Positions 1 through 7,071 of a stretch of DNA of 11,732 bases are shown here, piece by piece (positions within the stretch are counted from its first letter, which is position 1; every line of letters begins with the position of its first letter). This stretch comes from a virus. Its lineage: Duplodnaviria > Heunggongvirae > Uroviricota > Caudoviricetes. Both the position numbers and the translations under genes were made by a program. Under the pieces are notes generated by a model, which did not search any database, was not told where the DNA came from, and saw only the letters and a program-made list of their open reading frames with translations. The DNA lies in IMG/VR virus record IMGVR_UViG_2548876857_000009. The stretch is one strand, 5' to 3'.

Positions 1-168
1 TTTTGGTGTTTTGCCCTGACGCTCATCACGCAGTTGTTTGACCCATCTTGTCATTATGGAAAGGCCGATATCCATAGCTTTGGCGGCATCTGCCACCGTG
101 CAGTTCTGGTCAACAACCAGTTGAGCGGATTCGCGTTTAAACTCTGCGCTGAAATTTCTTTTTTTCAT
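1..168 (-). CDS. IS911-type transposase OrfA (HTH DNA-binding subunit), N-terminal 56 codons only; the rest lies outside the window
   Basis: Minus-strand ATG at 166-168, then [56 protein letters not shown], near-identical to IS911 OrfA as I remember it. The frame is open to the window edge. Confidence 0.8.
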
Positions 169-240
169 TGGAGCACCTGTGTTGTTCTGAGGTGAGCATA
201 TCACCTCTGTTCAGGTGGCCAAATTCAGTGTGCCACTACA
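1..240 (-). mobile_element. Left end of an IS911-like (IS3 family) insertion sequence; only ~240 bp lie in the window and the element continues past the window start
   Basis: Minus strand read from ~240 gives TGTAGTGGCACACTGAATTTGGCCACCTGAACAGAGG..., a TG-initiated terminal repeat as in IS3-family ends, followed ~70 nt later by the orfA start. I recognise the terminus and the OrfA N-terminus as IS911 from memory; not database-verified. Confidence 0.8.
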
Positions 241-1415
241 AAGTAAGCCCACCACTGCATCATCGGACGACGTTGCTCAAGGTAATCACTGCGGTTGTAA
301 GCGCGACGTACCTCATTTTTGTCTACATGAGCCAGTGCTGCTTCAATGACATCAGGCGGGAATCCTTCCTCATTGAGTGCCGTACTAGCGATAGAGCGTA
401 AACCGTGTGATACGAGTACGCCTCCTAAGCCAGCACGCTTAAGTGCGGCATTAACTGTTTGGCTGTTCATTGGCTGGGTTGGTTTGATGCGACTGGGAAA
501 GATAAACTCTCGGCCACCACTGAGTGACTTCATCATTTCCAGAATAGAAAGAGCCTCATCCGATAGTGGAACCGTATGGTCTCGGTTCATCTTCATACGA
601 GCTGCTGGAATTTTCCATTCTTTAGCACTGAAATCGATCTCATCCCATCGTGCCTCAGCGGCTTCGGCAGGGCGGGTAATGGTGAGAAGCTGCCACATGA
701 ACAAGCACCGCGTTGACATACTGATACTTGCTGTACGCATTGTTTGCATTAACTGTGGAAGCTGATCCGGACGGATACTCGGCATGTTTTTCTTTTGCGG
801 TTTCTCGAACGCTTTTCCGATATTTACACTGGGAACTGCATCAATCAGGCCTGTGTTCTGCGCATAAATCATGACTTCGTTAATACGCTGACAAAGGCGG
901 CGAACAGTCTCTAATGCACCTCTGGCCTGAACCGGCTGAACAGCTTTAACCAGAGTATGAGCCTAAATCTCAGTGACGCTGATATCACCGATTGCTGGGA
1001 AAACATCTCTCTCAAGCGAGCGCCAGATATCGTCGGCATAGTCCTCTGTTACGCTGGCTTTCTTCACATTCCACCAACGCTCGGCAACTAACAAGAAGGT
1101 GTTGGTTTTGGCCTCTTGAGAATTCCTCACCTGTTCTTTCTGGTGTTCCTGAGGATCAATATCTTTTGCCAACAAAACTCGAGATTCAGCTCTGAGTTTA
1201 CGCGCATGAGAAAGGGAGACAGCAGGGTAGGCACCGAAGCTCTGCTTGGTTCGCTGTTTGGTTAGAGGCCGATAGTAACGGAACTGCCAGAGCTTACTAC
1301 CGCTGGACTTTATTAACAGGGTCAGCCCATCACCATCATAAAGCTGGTAATCGGCATCTTTAGGTTTGGCGGCTTTGATTTCCGTATCGGTTAACGGCTT
1401 GGTTTTTCTTGCCAT
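225..1415 (-). pseudogene. int: P4-type tyrosine integrase, disrupted by an in-frame TAG at 963-965 and by replacement of its C-terminal end with the IS911 terminus
   Basis: ORF-track ORFs 963..1451 and 225..872 are in the same minus-strand frame, separated only by one TAG. Joined, they align end to end with the intact integrase at 10521..11732 (MARKTKPLTDTEIKA vs MARTTRPLTNTEVLRA, and HGLRSIASTALNEEGFPPDVIEAALAHVDKNEVRRAYNRS in both). Start taken at the ATG at 1413-1415, preceded by GGAG. The last ~5 codons and stop (225-242) fall inside the IS terminus. Confidence 0.8.
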
Positions 1416-1434
1416 GGGGAGTCTCCATGCGTTT

Positions 1435-1471
1435 AGGCCCAACGAAAACAATAGAGCTTTTCGTTGGGCCT
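1435..1471. repeat. Perfect 14-bp inverted repeat (AGGCCCAACGAAAA / TTTTCGTTGGGCCT) with 9-nt spacer, ~20 nt upstream of the int pseudogene start
   Basis: Read directly from the sequence; function unknown (possible operator or 5'-UTR hairpin). Confidence 0.5.
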
Positions 1472-1535
1472 ATCAATGGGCCTAAAAGGTTCGGATTTAA
1501 TTAGTTCTCTTCGGACTTCGCGGGACAAATTGAAG

Positions 1536-1572
1536 ACACAAAAAAGCCCGCAGGGCTTGTGCCGTGCGGGCT
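1536..1572 (-). terminator. Rho-independent terminator on the minus strand
   Basis: 8-bp GC-rich stem AGCCCGCA/TGCGGGCT (1545-1552 and 1565-1572) with 12-nt loop, followed on the minus strand by UUUUUGUGU. It lies downstream of the alpha-crr transcript and of the tRNA-3'-end-like segment. Confidence 0.6.
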
Positions 1573-1618
1573 CTTAGGACTTCATCGGATGACTCTGGTA
1601 ATCACCGATGGAGAATTT

Positions 1619-1640
1619 TGGTGGGCTGGCGGAGTTTGAA
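1619..1640 (-). other. Candidate att core or direct repeat: tRNA/tmRNA 3'-end-like segment ending in CCACCA on the minus strand
   Basis: Plus strand TGGTGGGCTGGCGGAGTTTGAA reads on the minus strand as TTCAAACTCCGCCAGCCCACCA. From memory this resembles the 3' end of E. coli ssrA/tmRNA (…TTCAACTCCCGCCAGCTCCACCA). It sits ~200 bp upstream of the integrase start on the same strand, the usual geometry for tRNA-integrated P4-type elements. No full tRNA is present here. Confidence 0.35.
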
Positions 1641-1775
1641 TAAATATTATATCGCTTTGATTTTTAACGATTTTGTTTAATTCAGTTTTTGTGCGTATAC
1701 CTAATCGTATACCAATGGCTGTAAGTTAATGTGAAATGAAAGCGCATTTTTACTTGGATTGATGCTATATCGTAC

Positions 1776-1910
1776 AGGAAAAAAAATTTTTTTTCGAAAG
1801 AACTGTTCACACTGTTCACCTTTCTGTTTTCTCCTTTTATTTCATAGTGATAGGTGGTGAATAATGGGTGAAGGGTGAACATTCGATTCTTCACCTCCGG
1901 CATTCTGCCG
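1776..1910. repeat. crr (cis replication region) direct repeat copy 1, with type-I iteron octamers
   Basis: Contains TGTTCACACTGTTCACC and the inverted GGTGAA...GGTGAAGGGTGAAC. Near-identical to copy 2 exactly 180 bp downstream (1803 aligns to 1983). Confidence 0.8.
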
Positions 1911-1955
1911 GTGTGACTCATACCGGTGATTAATCCTCCGCACTGAAATCACTCA

Positions 1956-2090
1956 GGAAGAAAAAAGTTTTTTTTGATTTGATTGTTCACACTGTTCACC
2001 TTTCGTTTTTCTCTTTTAATTTCAGTGTGATAACGGGTGAATATACGGTGAAGGGTGAACAGTGGATTGTTCACCTTCGGGGGATTCAGG
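1956..2090. repeat. crr direct repeat copy 2
   Basis: Same octamer arrangement as copy 1 at 180-bp period. Matches the P4 crr description (two ~120-bp direct repeats separated by ~60 bp) located just downstream of alpha. Confidence 0.8.
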
Positions 2091-2134
2091 GATGAAAAAA
2101 GACCGGCAGATGCCGGTCAGATGAGTCATGAGGG

Positions 2135-4468
2135 TCAGGTTGTTGCAGGGTCGTCACATTTTGGCAGCCAGTCGCCGTAGCTTTCCTCTTTCAGTGTCAG
2201 GTTGGTCTGTATCCCCTGTTTGGTATGGCGCTTCTCGTAATTCAGTCCGTATTCCTTCAGCATCACCGGCAGCCCCAGCCCGAACATTTTCAGGCTGAGT
2301 ACATTCCGGTAGCCGTTTGCCTCCATGTAGGCCAGATAGGCGTGATAGAGGTATTTACGGTAATTACGCGGGATGATACTGGCGTTCCCCATATACATGC
2401 CGCTGGTCTGCGGCAGGGTTTCCAGATAGCCGATAAAATCAAACGTCGGGTCGGCATCCCGTTTGATGTTCAGTGCCTCGTCTGAGTTCTGCTGGGACTG
2501 AAGCAGTGACCGGGCGAGCATCGGGTCGCTGAACTTCTGCATCAGGTGACGCACGATGACCGCCAGCTCGCGGGTGATTTTGTCCTTAAGCTGCGGGTCG
2601 CGCTCCTGCGGGGCTATCTGTTCCGGGAAGTGAATAATCACCCGCCGGCGTGACACGCCGCCGCTGCGGTCGGTGAAGCGCATCGGGTTATTGTTCACGG
2701 CCAGAATCACCGCCGGGATGTGCGTGGAGTATGCATCCCGGTATTTCGGGTCAACGGACACCGCATCGCCGCCGGTGATGGCCTTGAGTCCGGCACCGTC
2801 GCCGCTCCATTTTTCCTGGTCCGGCAGGCGTATCAGTGAGAAGCCAGTTAACGCGGCACGTTCACGCGGGGATTCCAGCGTCTCGATGGTGGCCGACGTG
2901 GCGTTATCCTCCCCGGCCAGCAGGGTGGCTATTTCGGCCATGATACTTTTGCCGCTGCCGCCGGGACCGGTCACCTCCAGAAAGAGCTGCCAGTCGTAGC
3001 GGTTTGCCAGCACCATAAACAGTGCGGCCAGAATCACGTCGCGTTTTTCCGCACGGCCACCGGCGGCACGGTCAAGCCAGCGCCAGAACGCGGGGGCGTG
3101 GGTTTCCAGCGTTTCCCCTTCCACCGGCGGGGTGAAATCCACATCGCACAGGGTGCGCATCCAGTGTGACGGACTGTGCGGGTGGAACGTGCCGTTCTGC
3201 GTGTCGAGCACGCCGTTACGAAAGCCAATCAGGCGGCGGGAGGGGGCTTCCTGCTGCGGAATAATCAGCTTCAGGGTGTCCACCACGGAGGCCACCTTCC
3301 CGGAGGAGAACGGCGCACGCAGCCGCTGAAACAGCCCGGCCACATCCCGGGCAAAGTCCTGTGGTGGCAGCACCTTCCAGACACCATTTTCATAACGGGA
3401 CAGAAGCTGGCCGTTGGCATCGACCGCGAGCGCCTCGCCGTAATGCTCATAGATACGCATGGCCTTTTCGCTGGTACTCATGGCGGAAAACTCCGCTTCG
3501 CTCATGGTGTCGAACGGGCTTTCAGCCGGTGGCCGGATGGCATCGTAAATGGCCTTACGGGTGGCTTCCCCGCCGTACTGCGTGAAGGCATCATTCCAGT
3601 CACCGAAGACCGGCGGCAGGGCAACAACACCTTCACACGCATCTGCGGCTGCGGCGGCTTTTTTCTGGCCGTCACCGCTGAGGTCACGGTCTGCGGCAAG
3701 GACAATCTGACAGGCCGGATGCTTCTGCCGGGCAAGGCTGGCCAGAGAAAAGAGGTTCACGGAAGAAAGCGCCACCATCACCGTTTCACCGGTCAGGTGA
3801 TGTACGGTAAGTGCGGTCGCGTATCCCTCCGCTATCCACAGACGTTTTCCGGCCTGATTCTGTCCTTCAAGGATGTGACAGGTGCCCCTGACCTGCCCGC
3901 CTTTCAGGGTGCGCTTACGGCCGTCAGCGCTGATTAACTGAAGGTTAACCAGTTCGCCGCTGTCGTCATACAGTGGCACCACAAGGTCACCGGCGCGCCA
4001 GCTCACGCCACCGGCTCTGTGTGTGCCGGTCAGCATCCGGCATTCCCGGCCGGGAAAGCCCTTGCGGGTCAGGTAGGCGTTACCGGTTCCGGTACGGGTT
4101 TTCGCCATCAGGGTTTGTGCCAGTGCGGCGGCGTTCTTCCGGGCAGCGTCTGTTTCAGCGCCGGCGGCGGCCGTCACTGCCGGGTCAGCCGGGGGCAGGC
4201 TGCCGGTCACGGCAGCCACCTTTGCGGCCGCGTCGGACGGGGAAACACCAAACACCTTTTCAACCAGTTTCAGGCCGTCACCGGCACCACACTGATTGCA
4301 GTACCAGGTGCCGCGCCCCTCCCTGTCATCAAAACGGAAGCGGTCACTCCCGCCACAGACCGGACAGGGCTGATGACGGTTCTTAAGCACCTGAATCCCC
4401 AGCGCCGGGAGAATACGCGGCCAGTGGCCGAGCGCATGGCTGACGGTGGCGGTTACGTTCATTTTCAT
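2135..4468 (-). CDS. alpha: P4 alpha-type replication protein: N-terminal zinc-binding primase fused to a D5/SF3-type helicase
   Basis: 777 aa, the same length as P4 alpha. N-terminal Cys motif CPVCGGSDRFRFDD...CNQCG; Walker A VTGPGGSGKS in the C-terminal half. RBS AAGGAGAA 8 nt upstream of the ATG at 4468. Sits between cnr and crr as in P4. Confidence 0.9.
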   Translation of the reverse strand: MKMNVTATVSHALGHWPRILPALGIQVLKNRHQPCPVCGGSDRFRFDDREGRGTWYCNQCGAGDGLKLVEKVFGVSPSDAAAKVAAVTGSLPPADPAVTAAAGAETDAARKNAAALAQTLMAKTRTGTGNAYLTRKGFPGRECRMLTGTHRAGGVSWRAGDLVVPLYDDSGELVNLQLISADGRKRTLKGGQVRGTCHILEGQNQAGKRLWIAEGYATALTVHHLTGETVMVALSSVNLFSLASLARQKHPACQIVLAADRDLSGDGQKKAAAAADACEGVVALPPVFGDWNDAFTQYGGEATRKAIYDAIRPPAESPFDTMSEAEFSAMSTSEKAMRIYEHYGEALAVDANGQLLSRYENGVWKVLPPQDFARDVAGLFQRLRAPFSSGKVASVVDTLKLIIPQQEAPSRRLIGFRNGVLDTQNGTFHPHSPSHWMRTLCDVDFTPPVEGETLETHAPAFWRWLDRAAGGRAEKRDVILAALFMVLANRYDWQLFLEVTGPGGSGKSIMAEIATLLAGEDNATSATIETLESPRERAALTGFSLIRLPDQEKWSGDGAGLKAITGGDAVSVDPKYRDAYSTHIPAVILAVNNNPMRFTDRSGGVSRRRVIIHFPEQIAPQERDPQLKDKITRELAVIVRHLMQKFSDPMLARSLLQSQQNSDEALNIKRDADPTFDFIGYLETLPQTSGMYMGNASIIPRNYRKYLYHAYLAYMEANGYRNVLSLKMFGLGLPVMLKEYGLNYEKRHTKQGIQTNLTLKEESYGDWLPKCDDPATT

Positions 4469-4482
4469 GGTGTTGTTCTCCT

Positions 4483-4803
4483 TCAGTGCAGTACCGGCGC
4501 TTTTATGTGACGGGCACAGAGTTCATCCATCACAACCAGCCCGAGAAAGGACAGCGACGGCGCGGCCTTCAGGGGGCCGGATTCCATTAAATCTTCCAGC
4601 AGGGCACAGGCTATCTGACGCCCTTTTTCCTCACCGTGCTGGCGCAGATAAAAGCCTTCCAGCTCAGCGGCGATGGCCGCCTCCAGTGATTCAAGGGTGA
4701 GATGCGGGTAGCGGTGCTGACGTTCGCACACGGTCAGCCAGGCACAGGCGACAGCACGACGGTAAAGGGCTGCGCGTAAGACGGGCGGTAAGGGTGTTTT
4801 CAT
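4483..4803 (-). CDS. cnr: Cnr-like copy-number regulator (P4 orf106 equivalent)
   Basis: 106 aa, immediately upstream of alpha on the same strand; RBS GGGAGG 8 nt before the ATG. Assigned by size and position as remembered for P4; no sequence memory to confirm. Confidence 0.6.
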
Positions 4804-4938
4804 TTGCTTTCCTCCCTGTGACAGATGACTGCATTCCGTGCCGGTTGCATTAACTGATAAGGCATATCTGCGTCTCCTGAAGACGTGCGTATCCCTGCGC
4901 GAATACGCACATTTAATTTTTCGGGTGTCGTTTTTTAA

Positions 4939-5394
4939 TTACAGATAATTGCGGTAACTGTTATCCGGGGTGATTTCCGGGTCAGGCTCCGTGCGGGGAA
5001 TTTCCCGCCATTCCCGCGCCACCGGTGCCGCCCGGCTGACCGGAACAGGGTCCTGCGGGTAAATATCCAGATATTTCTCCCGCCATTTCTGTAATTCCGG
5101 GTCTCCGGCCATTTCTTTCAGTACCGCATGCCGGTTTACGGGGCTGCGTTTAAACAGGTCAGGACGGTCACAGGTAAATTCCCGCAGAAAACGCCCCAGC
5201 GGGATGTCTGTGGTGCGCCCGTCAGCGAGGATACGCACAAGGATACTGAATTTACGGCGGTACGGGTTCCAGACAATGTCCGGGCAGCGGTACGGCATTT
5301 CCCACGGAATACCGTCTTCCAGAATGCCGACCACGGCCACATCGGGAAAACCGGCAGAACGGTAAATCTCACCGGGCTGGGGAAAATCAAACAT
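4939..5394 (-). CDS. Hypothetical protein, P4 orf151 equivalent
   Basis: 151 aa ORF in the position of P4 orf151, upstream of cnr. Its start overlaps the stop of the upstream ORF, suggesting operon coupling. Confidence 0.6.
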   Translation of the reverse strand: MFDFPQPGEIYRSAGFPDVAVVGILEDGIPWEMPYRCPDIVWNPYRRKFSILVRILADGRTTDIPLGRFLREFTCDRPDLFKRSPVNRHAVLKEMAGDPELQKWREKYLDIYPQDPVPVSRAAPVAREWREIPRTEPDPEITPDNSYRNYL

Positions 5395-5674
5395 GCGTCT
5401 TGTCTCCCCGGTCTTTCTGCTGGGCGAGAAAATCGCGGCACAGGCCTTTGGCTTTCAGCTCATTCAGCACAAAATCAATATCTTCATTCAGGTAGCTGAA
5501 AATATGCGGAATGTAGAGCTGATGCAGGCCGGAGAGTTCACGGTGAATCAAATCACCCCCAACAAACTGGGATACGGCGCTGGCGCGGTTGAGCTTATGG
5601 TAAGCCTCAATGCTGAGGTGTTCACGGGCGTCATGACGCGCTGAGACGGTCTGAGGGGCTTTTTTATTACGCAC
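5387..5674 (-). CDS. Hypothetical 95-aa protein, GTG-initiated; possible P4 epsilon (eps) equivalent by position
   Basis: The frame has no internal Met. GTG at 5672-5674 is preceded by GGAGG at 6-nt spacing and overlaps the stop of the upstream 65-aa ORF (GTGCGTAA). The eps name is a positional guess only. Confidence 0.5.
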
Positions 5675-5864
5675 GGGACACCTCCACCACCGGCAGACGG
5701 GCAGCAAGGGAGAGCACATAGTCACGGACAAGGGAACGGCGGGCGCTGCGTTCATCACCGGCGACGGTGCGAAGCATACAGATACGGGGATGACGGTCTG
5801 CGCGACGGACAGCCGCAAACACAAAGACAAATTCAGGGTGTGAAGGGGTAAGGGTTGTAGCCAT
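5667..5864 (-). CDS. Hypothetical 65-aa protein of the early-left operon (kil/eta region)
   Basis: ATG at 5862-5864 preceded by AAGGAG at 8-nt spacing. It is the 3' part of the ORF-track frame 5667..6302, whose upstream portion I regard as noncoding. Confidence 0.5.
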
Positions 5865-5929
5865 AAGGCAGTCTCCTTCGAGTAGCAAATAACTGCTATC
5901 GCCGGAGTTCCTACGCTCGATGGCGATAG

Positions 5930-6000
5930 CCCAGACGGGGGTAGGAATACCGGCCTCGAAGAATACCGGCCAGCCCGGAGGCTGCCCCGCCTGAGCTACC
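5930..6000 (-). ncRNA. Candidate CI-RNA-like immunity RNA (seqB-like element); approximate boundaries
   Basis: On the minus-strand transcript AUUCCUACCCCC (plus 5937-5947) is complementary to GCGUAGGAAC, which occurs upstream (plus 6150-6159) and downstream (plus 5907-5916). This is the seqA-seqB-seqC arrangement of P4 immunity. The region also has tRNA-like motifs (GGUAGCUCAGG, UUCGAGG), consistent with RNase P processing. No convincing ORF with an RBS. Confidence 0.3.
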
Positions 6001-6253
6001 ATTGACTCAGTGGCATAACATGCGATTGCGAACAGGATCATACCTGCACGGCAAACCACACGCCACACCATAATCTGGCGCTCTGTGGCGTTGATTGCGA
6101 CACAAAAAAAGACGCATGGCGCGTCATATGTCGCCTTCGAGTTACACGGGTTCCTACGCCCGGCTGCCGATTTTGCGGCAGCGGAAAAACTATATCCGCA
6201 AATGCCGGAAAAAGGCAAGCCAGAAAAAGGGACTTTTTGCAGAGCGGGCATCA

Positions 6254-6520
6254 TCATGCGTCGTACCCCCGTTTGCGTCCGGCAATGCGTCCGGCCATCC
6301 ATGCGGTGACTTCAGAGTGCAGCCAGGCCACATTTTTACCGCCAAGACTCACCTGCGGCGGAAATTCCCCCTTACGGATGAGTTCGTAGATGGTCGAGCG
6401 TGACAGGCCGCACAGGTGCATCACTTCCGGAAGACGCAAAAAACGCTCCTGTGTGATGTCCGGCTGCGGCATCAGTGGCGTCACAGGGGCGGGAGACGGG
6501 GAAGAAAAAACAGCTTGCAT
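6254..6520 (-). CDS. vis: AlpA-family DNA-binding regulator, Vis-like (P4 orf88 equivalent)
   Basis: 88 aa. Motif [48 protein letters not shown] is typical of AlpA/Vis HTH proteins. RBS GAGGT 7 nt upstream. It is the first gene downstream of the leftward TGT-N12-ACA dyad. Confidence 0.75.
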
Positions 6521-6622
6521 CGGGCTACCTCGTTAATGTCCATACAGCACCGGATAAGTCCGTCCGGCTTCGGGTAGCGCTTTATTTTGTGAATATTTTC
6601 AGCAGACGCAACAGGGGGAATT

Positions 6623-6640
6623 TGTTCCGGCAACCTTACA
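6623..6640 (-). promoter_or_regulatory. Candidate Delta/Ogr-dependent late promoter element (PLL-like) driving leftward transcription into vis
   Basis: TGT-tccggcaacctt-ACA (TGT, 12 nt, ACA). P2/P4 late promoters carry this dyad centred near -55, which would place the start ~50 nt upstream of the vis ATG. Confidence 0.45.
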
Positions 6641-6796
6641 ATGGCTGTGTGTTTTTTATCCATCCGGACTGGAAGGGTCTCAAAGGGTTCTGAAGGACCT
6701 GGAATTTTTTATAGTGAAATGCAAATTGTTTTTTCTTATTTATTTCAGTTAATTAATAAAAATAAACAGTAATAAACAGCATAAAAAGCCCATCAA

Positions 6797-6904
6797 CGGG
6801 TGAACAGTGGTGAACAGACGGTGAACAGTCATTACTGCGATTATTCACCCTTTAACTTACTGTATTACTTATCTTTTTTCTTATGGTGAACAGAGGTGAA
6901 CAGT
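6797..6904. repeat. ori-like iteron cluster (replication origin)
   Basis: GGTGAACAG three times in tandem (6798-6828), an inverted TTCACC (6845-6850), then GGTGAACAG twice (6886-6903): six octamers in an AT-rich context. The same octamer occurs in crr ~4.9 kb away, matching the P4 ori/crr arrangement. Confidence 0.75.
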
Positions 6905-6981
6905 AAAATATAAAAAAACAAACAGTAAGCCGGTTTTTCCTGCGACCTTTTCCTGGCTTGCCGGTCTGAGGATGAGTCTCC

Positions 6982-6999
6982 TGTGTCAGGGCTGGCACA
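6982..6999 (+). promoter_or_regulatory. Candidate Delta/Ogr-dependent late promoter element (Psid-like)
   Basis: TGT-gtcagggctggc-ACA dyad ~80 nt upstream of the sid ATG; possible -10 CACAAT near 7034-7039. Confidence 0.5.
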
Positions 7000-7071
7000 T
7001 CTGCAATGCGTCGTGTTGTTGTCCGGTGTACGTCACAATTCTCTCAACCTGAAGTGACGAGGAGCCGGAAA

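Follow-up and report, generated by a model that had tools for sequence, protein, structure and literature searches.

How an integrase gene next to a tmRNA gene comes to be lost, and in how many steps, is the question raised by the left end of the DNA studied here, a viral (Caudoviricetes) stretch of 11,732 nucleotides that is referred to below, as a whole, as the window. The gene has a stop codon in its middle and the end of an insertion sequence (IS) at its 3′-terminus, and it had been described in a preliminary description as inactivated twice. For integrases of the CP4-57 family, the site at which islands are inserted is the 3′ end of ssrA, the tmRNA gene. The explanation that best accounts for the observations, with a probability of about 0.9, is a young pseudogene of this intA type, in which an IS-mediated junction was formed first and an amber mutation of Lys151 followed.

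Structure and identity of the interrupted integrase gene

The gene occupies positions 225–1415 on the minus strand. Translation of this interval gives 397 codons (150 sense codons, one TAG, 245 sense codons and the terminal TGA at 225–227), i.e. a 396-codon frame with a single internal stop. The open reading frames called on the two sides of this stop, 225–872 and 963–1451, have a common frame. In a global alignment of the stitched product with the intact paralog encoded in the same window (10521–11732, minus strand) there is no gap across the stop and identity is 63%; the paralog residue opposite the stop is Lys151, encoded by AAA at 11280–11282. The preliminary description had seen here one P4-type integrase pseudogene, its collinear halves being separated only by a TAG at 963–965 where the paralog has Lys. 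Translation and alignment reproduce the position and the codon exactly, the ungapped alignment bears out the collinearity, and the Pfam domains, the identity to K-12 intA and the public annotation, all given below, agree with the family assignment.

Codons 1–150 (966–1415, minus strand) encode the whole arm-type DNA-binding domain (residues 8–95) and the first 43 residues of the central core-binding domain; codons 152–396 (228–962, minus strand) encode the remainder of the central domain and the catalytic domain. In terms of Pfam families, the N-terminal piece has Arm-DNA-bind_3 and half of Phage_int_M, and the C-terminal piece has the rest of Phage_int_M and Phage_integrase. An intact 413-aa allele carries the same families at residues 8–95, 108–198 and 214–378, respectively, and scores 897 bits on NCBIfam PRK09692. 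Taken across its two pieces, the pseudogene has the three-domain architecture of P4/CP4-57 (IntA) tyrosine recombinases. Residues R236, H337, R340, H363 and Y373, which we regard, from the family motif, as the catalytic residues (Arg-His-Arg-His and the Tyr nucleophile), are all encoded in it and all correspond to invariant alignment columns. The stop lies in the middle of the central domain, upstream of these five residues, so that the uninterrupted frame of an active enzyme is broken at codon 151, before every catalytic position.

Over the whole gene the DNA is 91.9% identical to K-12 intA, and a match is present in 489 of 5426 complete E. coli genomes. The allele of isolate SC477 is intact, encodes 413 aa and is 99.7% identical to the pseudogene at the DNA level. 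The location is also that of an integrase at its attachment site: the native ssrA–intA spacer is kept, and ssrA is directly adjacent to intA in close relatives without the P4-like insert described below. The closest well-known counterpart is therefore IntA (SlpA) of the K-12 cryptic prophage CP4-57, which the gene resembles in DNA (~92% identity), in its three domains, in the PRK09692 match of the intact allele and, in relatives lacking the P4-like insert, in its position right downstream of ssrA. It differs from K-12 IntA in the amber at codon 151, in the IS-derived C-terminus and in the P4-like element that separates it from ssrA; on its far side, an IS and a second integrase remnant take the place of the CP4-57 cargo. 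In K-12, overexpression of AlpA induces CP4-57 excision (PMC10107115).

In the two complete genomes with the same stop, CP148268 and CP039403, PGAP annotates the same coordinates as 'integrase; internal stop'. We conclude that the feature is a pseudogene of a P4/CP4-57-type (intA) integrase and not a functional member of the family. It is real, recent and ordinary, and public annotation already marks the locus as a pseudogene.

The amber codon is genuine and recent

The stop (TAG, codon 151; 963–965, minus strand) arose from AAG (Lys) through an A-to-T mutation of window base 965. Between positions 238 and 1618 this base is the sole difference from both the IS-fused allele of E. coli RM14723 and the intact allele of SC477. 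Both have AAG here, which bears out the earlier reading that a Lys codon was replaced. An alignment of 23 homologs, drawn from many enterobacterial genera, shows Lys at position 151 throughout.

The window comes from a short-read draft contig (AIAY01000114.1, to which it is 100% identical over the 4415 bases compared) and the change is of one base only, which could suggest a sequencing or assembly artefact in what is really an open 396-codon allele. We consider this extremely improbable. A 63-mer containing the TAG is present in two of the 5426 complete E. coli genomes, CP148268 (dog, Korea) and CP039403 (human), which have the same base and come from unrelated sources, and the exact 150-aa product is called on 110 contigs (NCBI, ENA, Logan). 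Since two independent complete genomes and these contigs share the truncated product, the amber is not a sequencing error. The pseudogene is otherwise identical to functional-looking alleles; the knock-out is therefore recent. The single-base amber is also a handy lineage marker.

The 3′ end of the gene is supplied by an IS911-like element

Positions 1–240 (minus strand) are the left end of an IS911-like element of the IS3 family. Its terminal inverted repeat starts at base 240 (TGTAGTGGCACACTGAATTTGGCC), with boundaries taken from independent copies: the minus-strand sequence TGTAGTGGCACAC... is also the end of the element in independent copies elsewhere. The orfA start codon is at 166–168 and the frame runs off the window, which begins inside the IS because contig AIAY01000114.1 ends there.

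The native 3′ end of the gene reads ...TAC TTT GTG AAA AAG... and encodes ...Y F followed by 21 residues (VKKADSGRLTDVELTTLKLTG) and a stop, while the window reads ...TAC TTT GTA GTG GCA CAC TGA, or ...Y F V V A H and a stop. The third base of Phe392, codons 393–396 (V V A H) and the TGA are all provided by the IS, the four codons and the stop falling within its terminal inverted repeat. Twenty-one native residues have thus been swapped for four, the first Val being the same by chance. It had been proposed from the first inspection that the C-terminus and stop come from an IS911-type terminus, and the element boundary at base 240 confirms this; of the roughly five codons credited to the IS, four are complete and a fifth receives only its third base (Phe392). 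The estimate of about a dozen lost residues has to be corrected to 21, as counted against the intact 413-aa allele; it was wrong because it was drawn from a comparison with the shorter-tailed 403-aa paralog.

Over its 240 bases in the window, the element shares 99.2% identity with a plasmid copy and 97.1% with one that PGAP names 'IS911 family'. At full length (1249 bp in RM14723) the element is 99.6% identical to the plasmid copy, which has the same TGTAG/CTACA ends, 91.2% to the IS911-family copy and 88.6% to an ISEc52-like one, the IS911 comparison being made against the PGAP-named copy rather than the ISfinder reference. In ISfinder practice, about 95% identity or more is expected of the same element. 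With its ~1.25 kb, TG...CA ends and inverted repeats (termini TGTAGTGG...CCACTACA) the element has the hallmarks of the IS3 family. It resembles IS911 in length (~1250 bp), in its 5′-TG...CA-3′ ends, in the near-identity of its inverted repeats and in the programmed frameshift annotated for the transposase of the RM14723 copy. It differs from IS911 in its TGTAG/CTACA termini (TGAAG/CTTCA in IS911), in the PGAP name, which is only 'IS3 family transposase', and in the lack of a target duplication. The original identification as IS911 therefore holds for the type of the end (97% over the 240 visible bases) but not for the element, which at full length reaches only 91% and begins with TGTAG, not TGAAG; the accurate name is 'IS911-like IS3-family element', not IS911 proper.

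In both complete genomes with the amber, the IS beside the pseudogene is 1251 bp long and its transposase gene is frameshifted by two bases (11998–13168 in the NZ_CP148268.1 and CP039403 loci); the RM14723 copy (3000–4168 of that locus) measures 1249 bp, and its programmed-frameshift transposase is intact. Decay in the amber lineage extends to the IS itself.

The native intA tail contains TAGTGGCAGACT (3977–3988 of a locus with the native gene end, L003), 12–13 bases downstream of the junction point. It matches the IS terminus TAGTGGCACACT at 11 of 12 positions and is the sole such match in the 9.4-kb locus; at least one was obtained in 6 of 200 shuffles. The 3′ end of intA may attract IS911-type elements via such end-like sequences. 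Strain MS 124-1 was considered as another carrier of the junction and rejected: there an ISEc52-like element joins intA 15 bp further upstream (...RRPMM|HEVVY*; around 4225–4240 of its locus, L005), and the two junctions arose independently.

The far side of the IS does not match a simple insertion

The window's own contig ends inside the IS, and its far side was judged from complete genomes of close relatives. In these the IS is bordered by ...TACTT and AATTG..., without a 3–4-bp target duplication, and the 63 bases of the native intA tail are missing at the locus in the complete genomes that have the junction. Instead, the far flank is codon 141/142 of a second gene of the intA family. The remnant of this gene, which keeps residues 142–413 at 78% DNA identity together with its own 413-type tail, has one frameshift and two stops. 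It abuts the far IS end beyond the left end of the window, at 11174–11988 in NZ_CP148268.1 and at the same position in the RM14723 and CP039403 loci. Altogether, the ssrA site holds three tandem integrase genes, an intact one (P4-like) and two remnants.

The lack of a target duplication and the presence of the second remnant beyond the IS therefore argue for an IS-mediated deletion and against simple insertion; in the simplest reading of this arrangement, the junction would be the scar of such a deletion or of IS–IS recombination.

Beyond the second remnant there are further IS remnants, followed by espC and an EspG/VirA-like gene, which lie 5–10 kb beyond the IS in two complete genomes with the amber. 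The region resembles the espC island of EPEC as reported at ssrA; according to the review PMC7545054, which cites Mellies et al. 2001, that island is inserted at ssrA and includes an integrase and several transposases. The original integrase of the espC island was probably not the present pseudogene; the more decayed remnant beyond the IS appears the better candidate.

The IS junction preceded the amber codon

A fused allele that has the IS end but no amber (396 aa, WP_001357551.1) is found on 157 contigs and in four complete genomes with this exact junction, and is annotated as intact intA. In RM14723, which carries it, the DNA of the gene and spacer is identical to that of the window but for base 965, and the IS junction and the VVAH end are the same; the differences are AAG (Lys) at codon 151, the annotation as intact, and the 1249-bp IS with its intact programmed frameshift. 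The junction is present in all seven amber loci fetched, and the exact downstream ORF ending in VVAH is called on 103 contigs, compared to 110 for the N-terminal piece. Because the amber-free fused allele exists and all seven amber loci carry the junction, we place the amber after the IS junction.

Both complete genomes with the amber also have the P4-like insert, and a link between the two was considered. It was rejected on account of one contig with a different integrase at that place: in ENA assembly ERZ27278363 (k141_1655, 1467–2639) the amber allele is accompanied by a lambdoid-type integrase (Arm-DNA-bind_2 and Phage_integrase) in the position of the P4-like element. Within the amber lineage, ssrA has therefore been invaded by different elements.

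Effects of the lost tail and of the amber on integrase function

As the first of the two lesions, the junction may have been the one that inactivated the gene, with the TAG as a neutral second hit in a gene already dead. Several observations speak for this. Among the 120 best homologs, which come from many enterobacterial genera, almost every one has a length of exactly 413 aa; the tail residues A396, D397 and L411 are near-invariant; and the IS event apparently removed the element to which the integrase belonged, which would relax selection on it. On the other hand, the junction lies 15 residues past the Pfam catalytic domain (214–378) and 20 past Tyr373, and the whole tails of well-known recombinases are no longer than that: the catalytic Tyr is followed by 14–19 residues in lambda Int (Tyr342 of 356), Cre (Tyr324 of 343) and XerD (Tyr279 of 298). 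The tail is moreover the least conserved part of the protein, that of the intact paralog being different and 10 residues shorter, and the fused allele has no other lesion and is annotated as intact. We regard a gene that was dead before the amber as a tentative possibility. The statement that the gene was inactivated twice is accordingly right in that both lesions are real, but overstated, as the junction spares all three domains and Tyr373 in an allele that annotation treats as intact.

An AlphaFold model of an intact 413-aa homolog, built from a 23-sequence alignment, had a mean pLDDT of 50 and a pTM of 0.28, with the tail below 50, values too low for the model to bear on any structure of residues 393–413. 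A PDB sequence search returned relatives solved as isolated N-terminal and central domains, and none for the catalytic domain or tail. The natural 396-aa IS-fused allele would allow a direct test of whether integrases of the IntA type need their 21-residue tail of conserved length.

With the amber in place, the split gene might still act, either through the 150-aa product as an arm-site regulator or competitor, or through a 215-aa product restarted at Met182, or by read-through of the UAG in a suppressor background. The arm-binding domain is indeed complete, isolated domains of relatives fold alone, the upstream spacer and a promoter-like site in it are intact, and both pieces are reported by gene callers. 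Gene finders call such pieces mechanically, however, and the mutation is too recent for signs of selection on the pieces. The first possible restart after the amber, Met182 (ATG, 870–872), has no good Shine-Dalgarno sequence before it. A tRNA/tmRNA scan of the window, in which ssrA is not included, gave nothing, and thus no suppressor tRNA. Activity of the split gene by any of these routes seems to us highly unlikely. The remark made at the outset that an amber-suppressor host could read the TAG through is formally true, and with no tRNA gene in the window it is unsupported; low natural read-through of the UAG or restart at Met182 is conceivable from the sequence alone.

Equally doubtful, and to be given only a few chances in a hundred, is an effect in trans, by which the 150-aa fragment would occupy arm sites, or the P4-like integrase, which is 63% identical and has the same ssrA core, would act on the orphaned att sites. 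Were either the case, the newcomer satellite would govern excision or co-mobilisation of the EspC island in trans.

Proposed history of the locus

In the preferred reading, that of an intA-type gene first joined to an IS and then stopped by an amber, events would have run as follows. An IS911-like element came to abut codon 392, so that the 21-residue tail was replaced by V-V-A-H-stop, and IS-mediated deletion or IS–IS recombination would have removed the integrase's own island cargo together with the first part of the integrase beyond it. At a later time and in one sublineage only, AAG at the invariant Lys151 became TAG through a single A-to-T transversion. Translation now ends after 150 residues, which comprise the arm-binding domain with one half of the central domain and include none of the catalytic residues; judging by this domain content, the product would therefore be no recombinase. 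Other elements have since integrated into ssrA, so that some 10 kb now separate it from the dead gene; in the window this newcomer is the P4-like satellite with its intact integrase.

The neighbouring EspC island region would as a result be without a working integrase of its own type, a loss that would tend to fix the espC region in the chromosome. More generally, the locus shows how the ssrA hotspot gathers stacked elements and decaying integrases, and it has little import beyond annotation.

The ssrA spacer, the attachment site and the P4-like satellite

The spacer between ssrA and intA (1416–1618, minus strand) is fully kept and identical to that of genomes with intA directly after ssrA. 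Within it are a terminator-like hairpin (1544–1558), probably the ssrA terminator, and a promoter-like site (1448–1476) revealed by a consensus scan. The spacer is followed by the attR of the P4-like element (1619–1640, minus strand), an imperfect copy of the ssrA 3′ end (TTCAAACTCCGCCAGC-CCACCA) recognized by comparison of attB, attL and attR. The same comparison suggests that crossover of the P4-like element took place within CCACCA. The attR copy of the ssrA 3′ end is without the T of ...GCCAGCTCCACCA. In K-12, loss of this base on CP4-57 excision (ssrA deltaT357) cripples tmRNA (PMC10107115). As the crossover seems to lie 3′ of that T, a normal ssrA should be regained when the P4-like element excises.

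The satellite prophage itself extends from 1641 to 11732 (minus strand), between the pseudogene and ssrA, which is off the window to the right. Its intact 403-aa integrase, the paralog used above (10521–11732, minus strand), is directly beside ssrA in strain 98206. The element has the features of a P4-like satellite: a P4-family primase (Primase_Cterm), C4 and isrK RNAs, iterons and an integrase next to ssrA; psu, ogr/delta and Icd-like annotations are found in near-identical loci. Rfam matches to the C4 antisense RNA, isrK and the c4-a1b1 target (5919–6195, minus strand) mark the P4-type RNA immunity region of the satellite. The octamer TGTTCACC occurs 10 times, compared to 0.4 expected, in two clusters of five (1813–2075 and 6799–6902), the first of them inside two near-duplicate blocks. 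We take these clusters to resemble the crr and ori iterons of P4 that are bound by the alpha primase.

Over bases 1–9139 the window shows 98.5% identity to the elements in CP148268 and CP039403. At its integrase-proximal end (9140–11732) the satellite is mosaic: the stretch ~9140–10555 holds unrelated cargo, and in the integrase identity drops to 79%. This cargo consists of a low-GC gene for a predicted 328-aa membrane protein (9283–10269) and a 57-aa ORF; a PADLOC search with the two cargo ORFs returned no matches. In another genome the cargo spot is taken by a gene of the SIR2 family.
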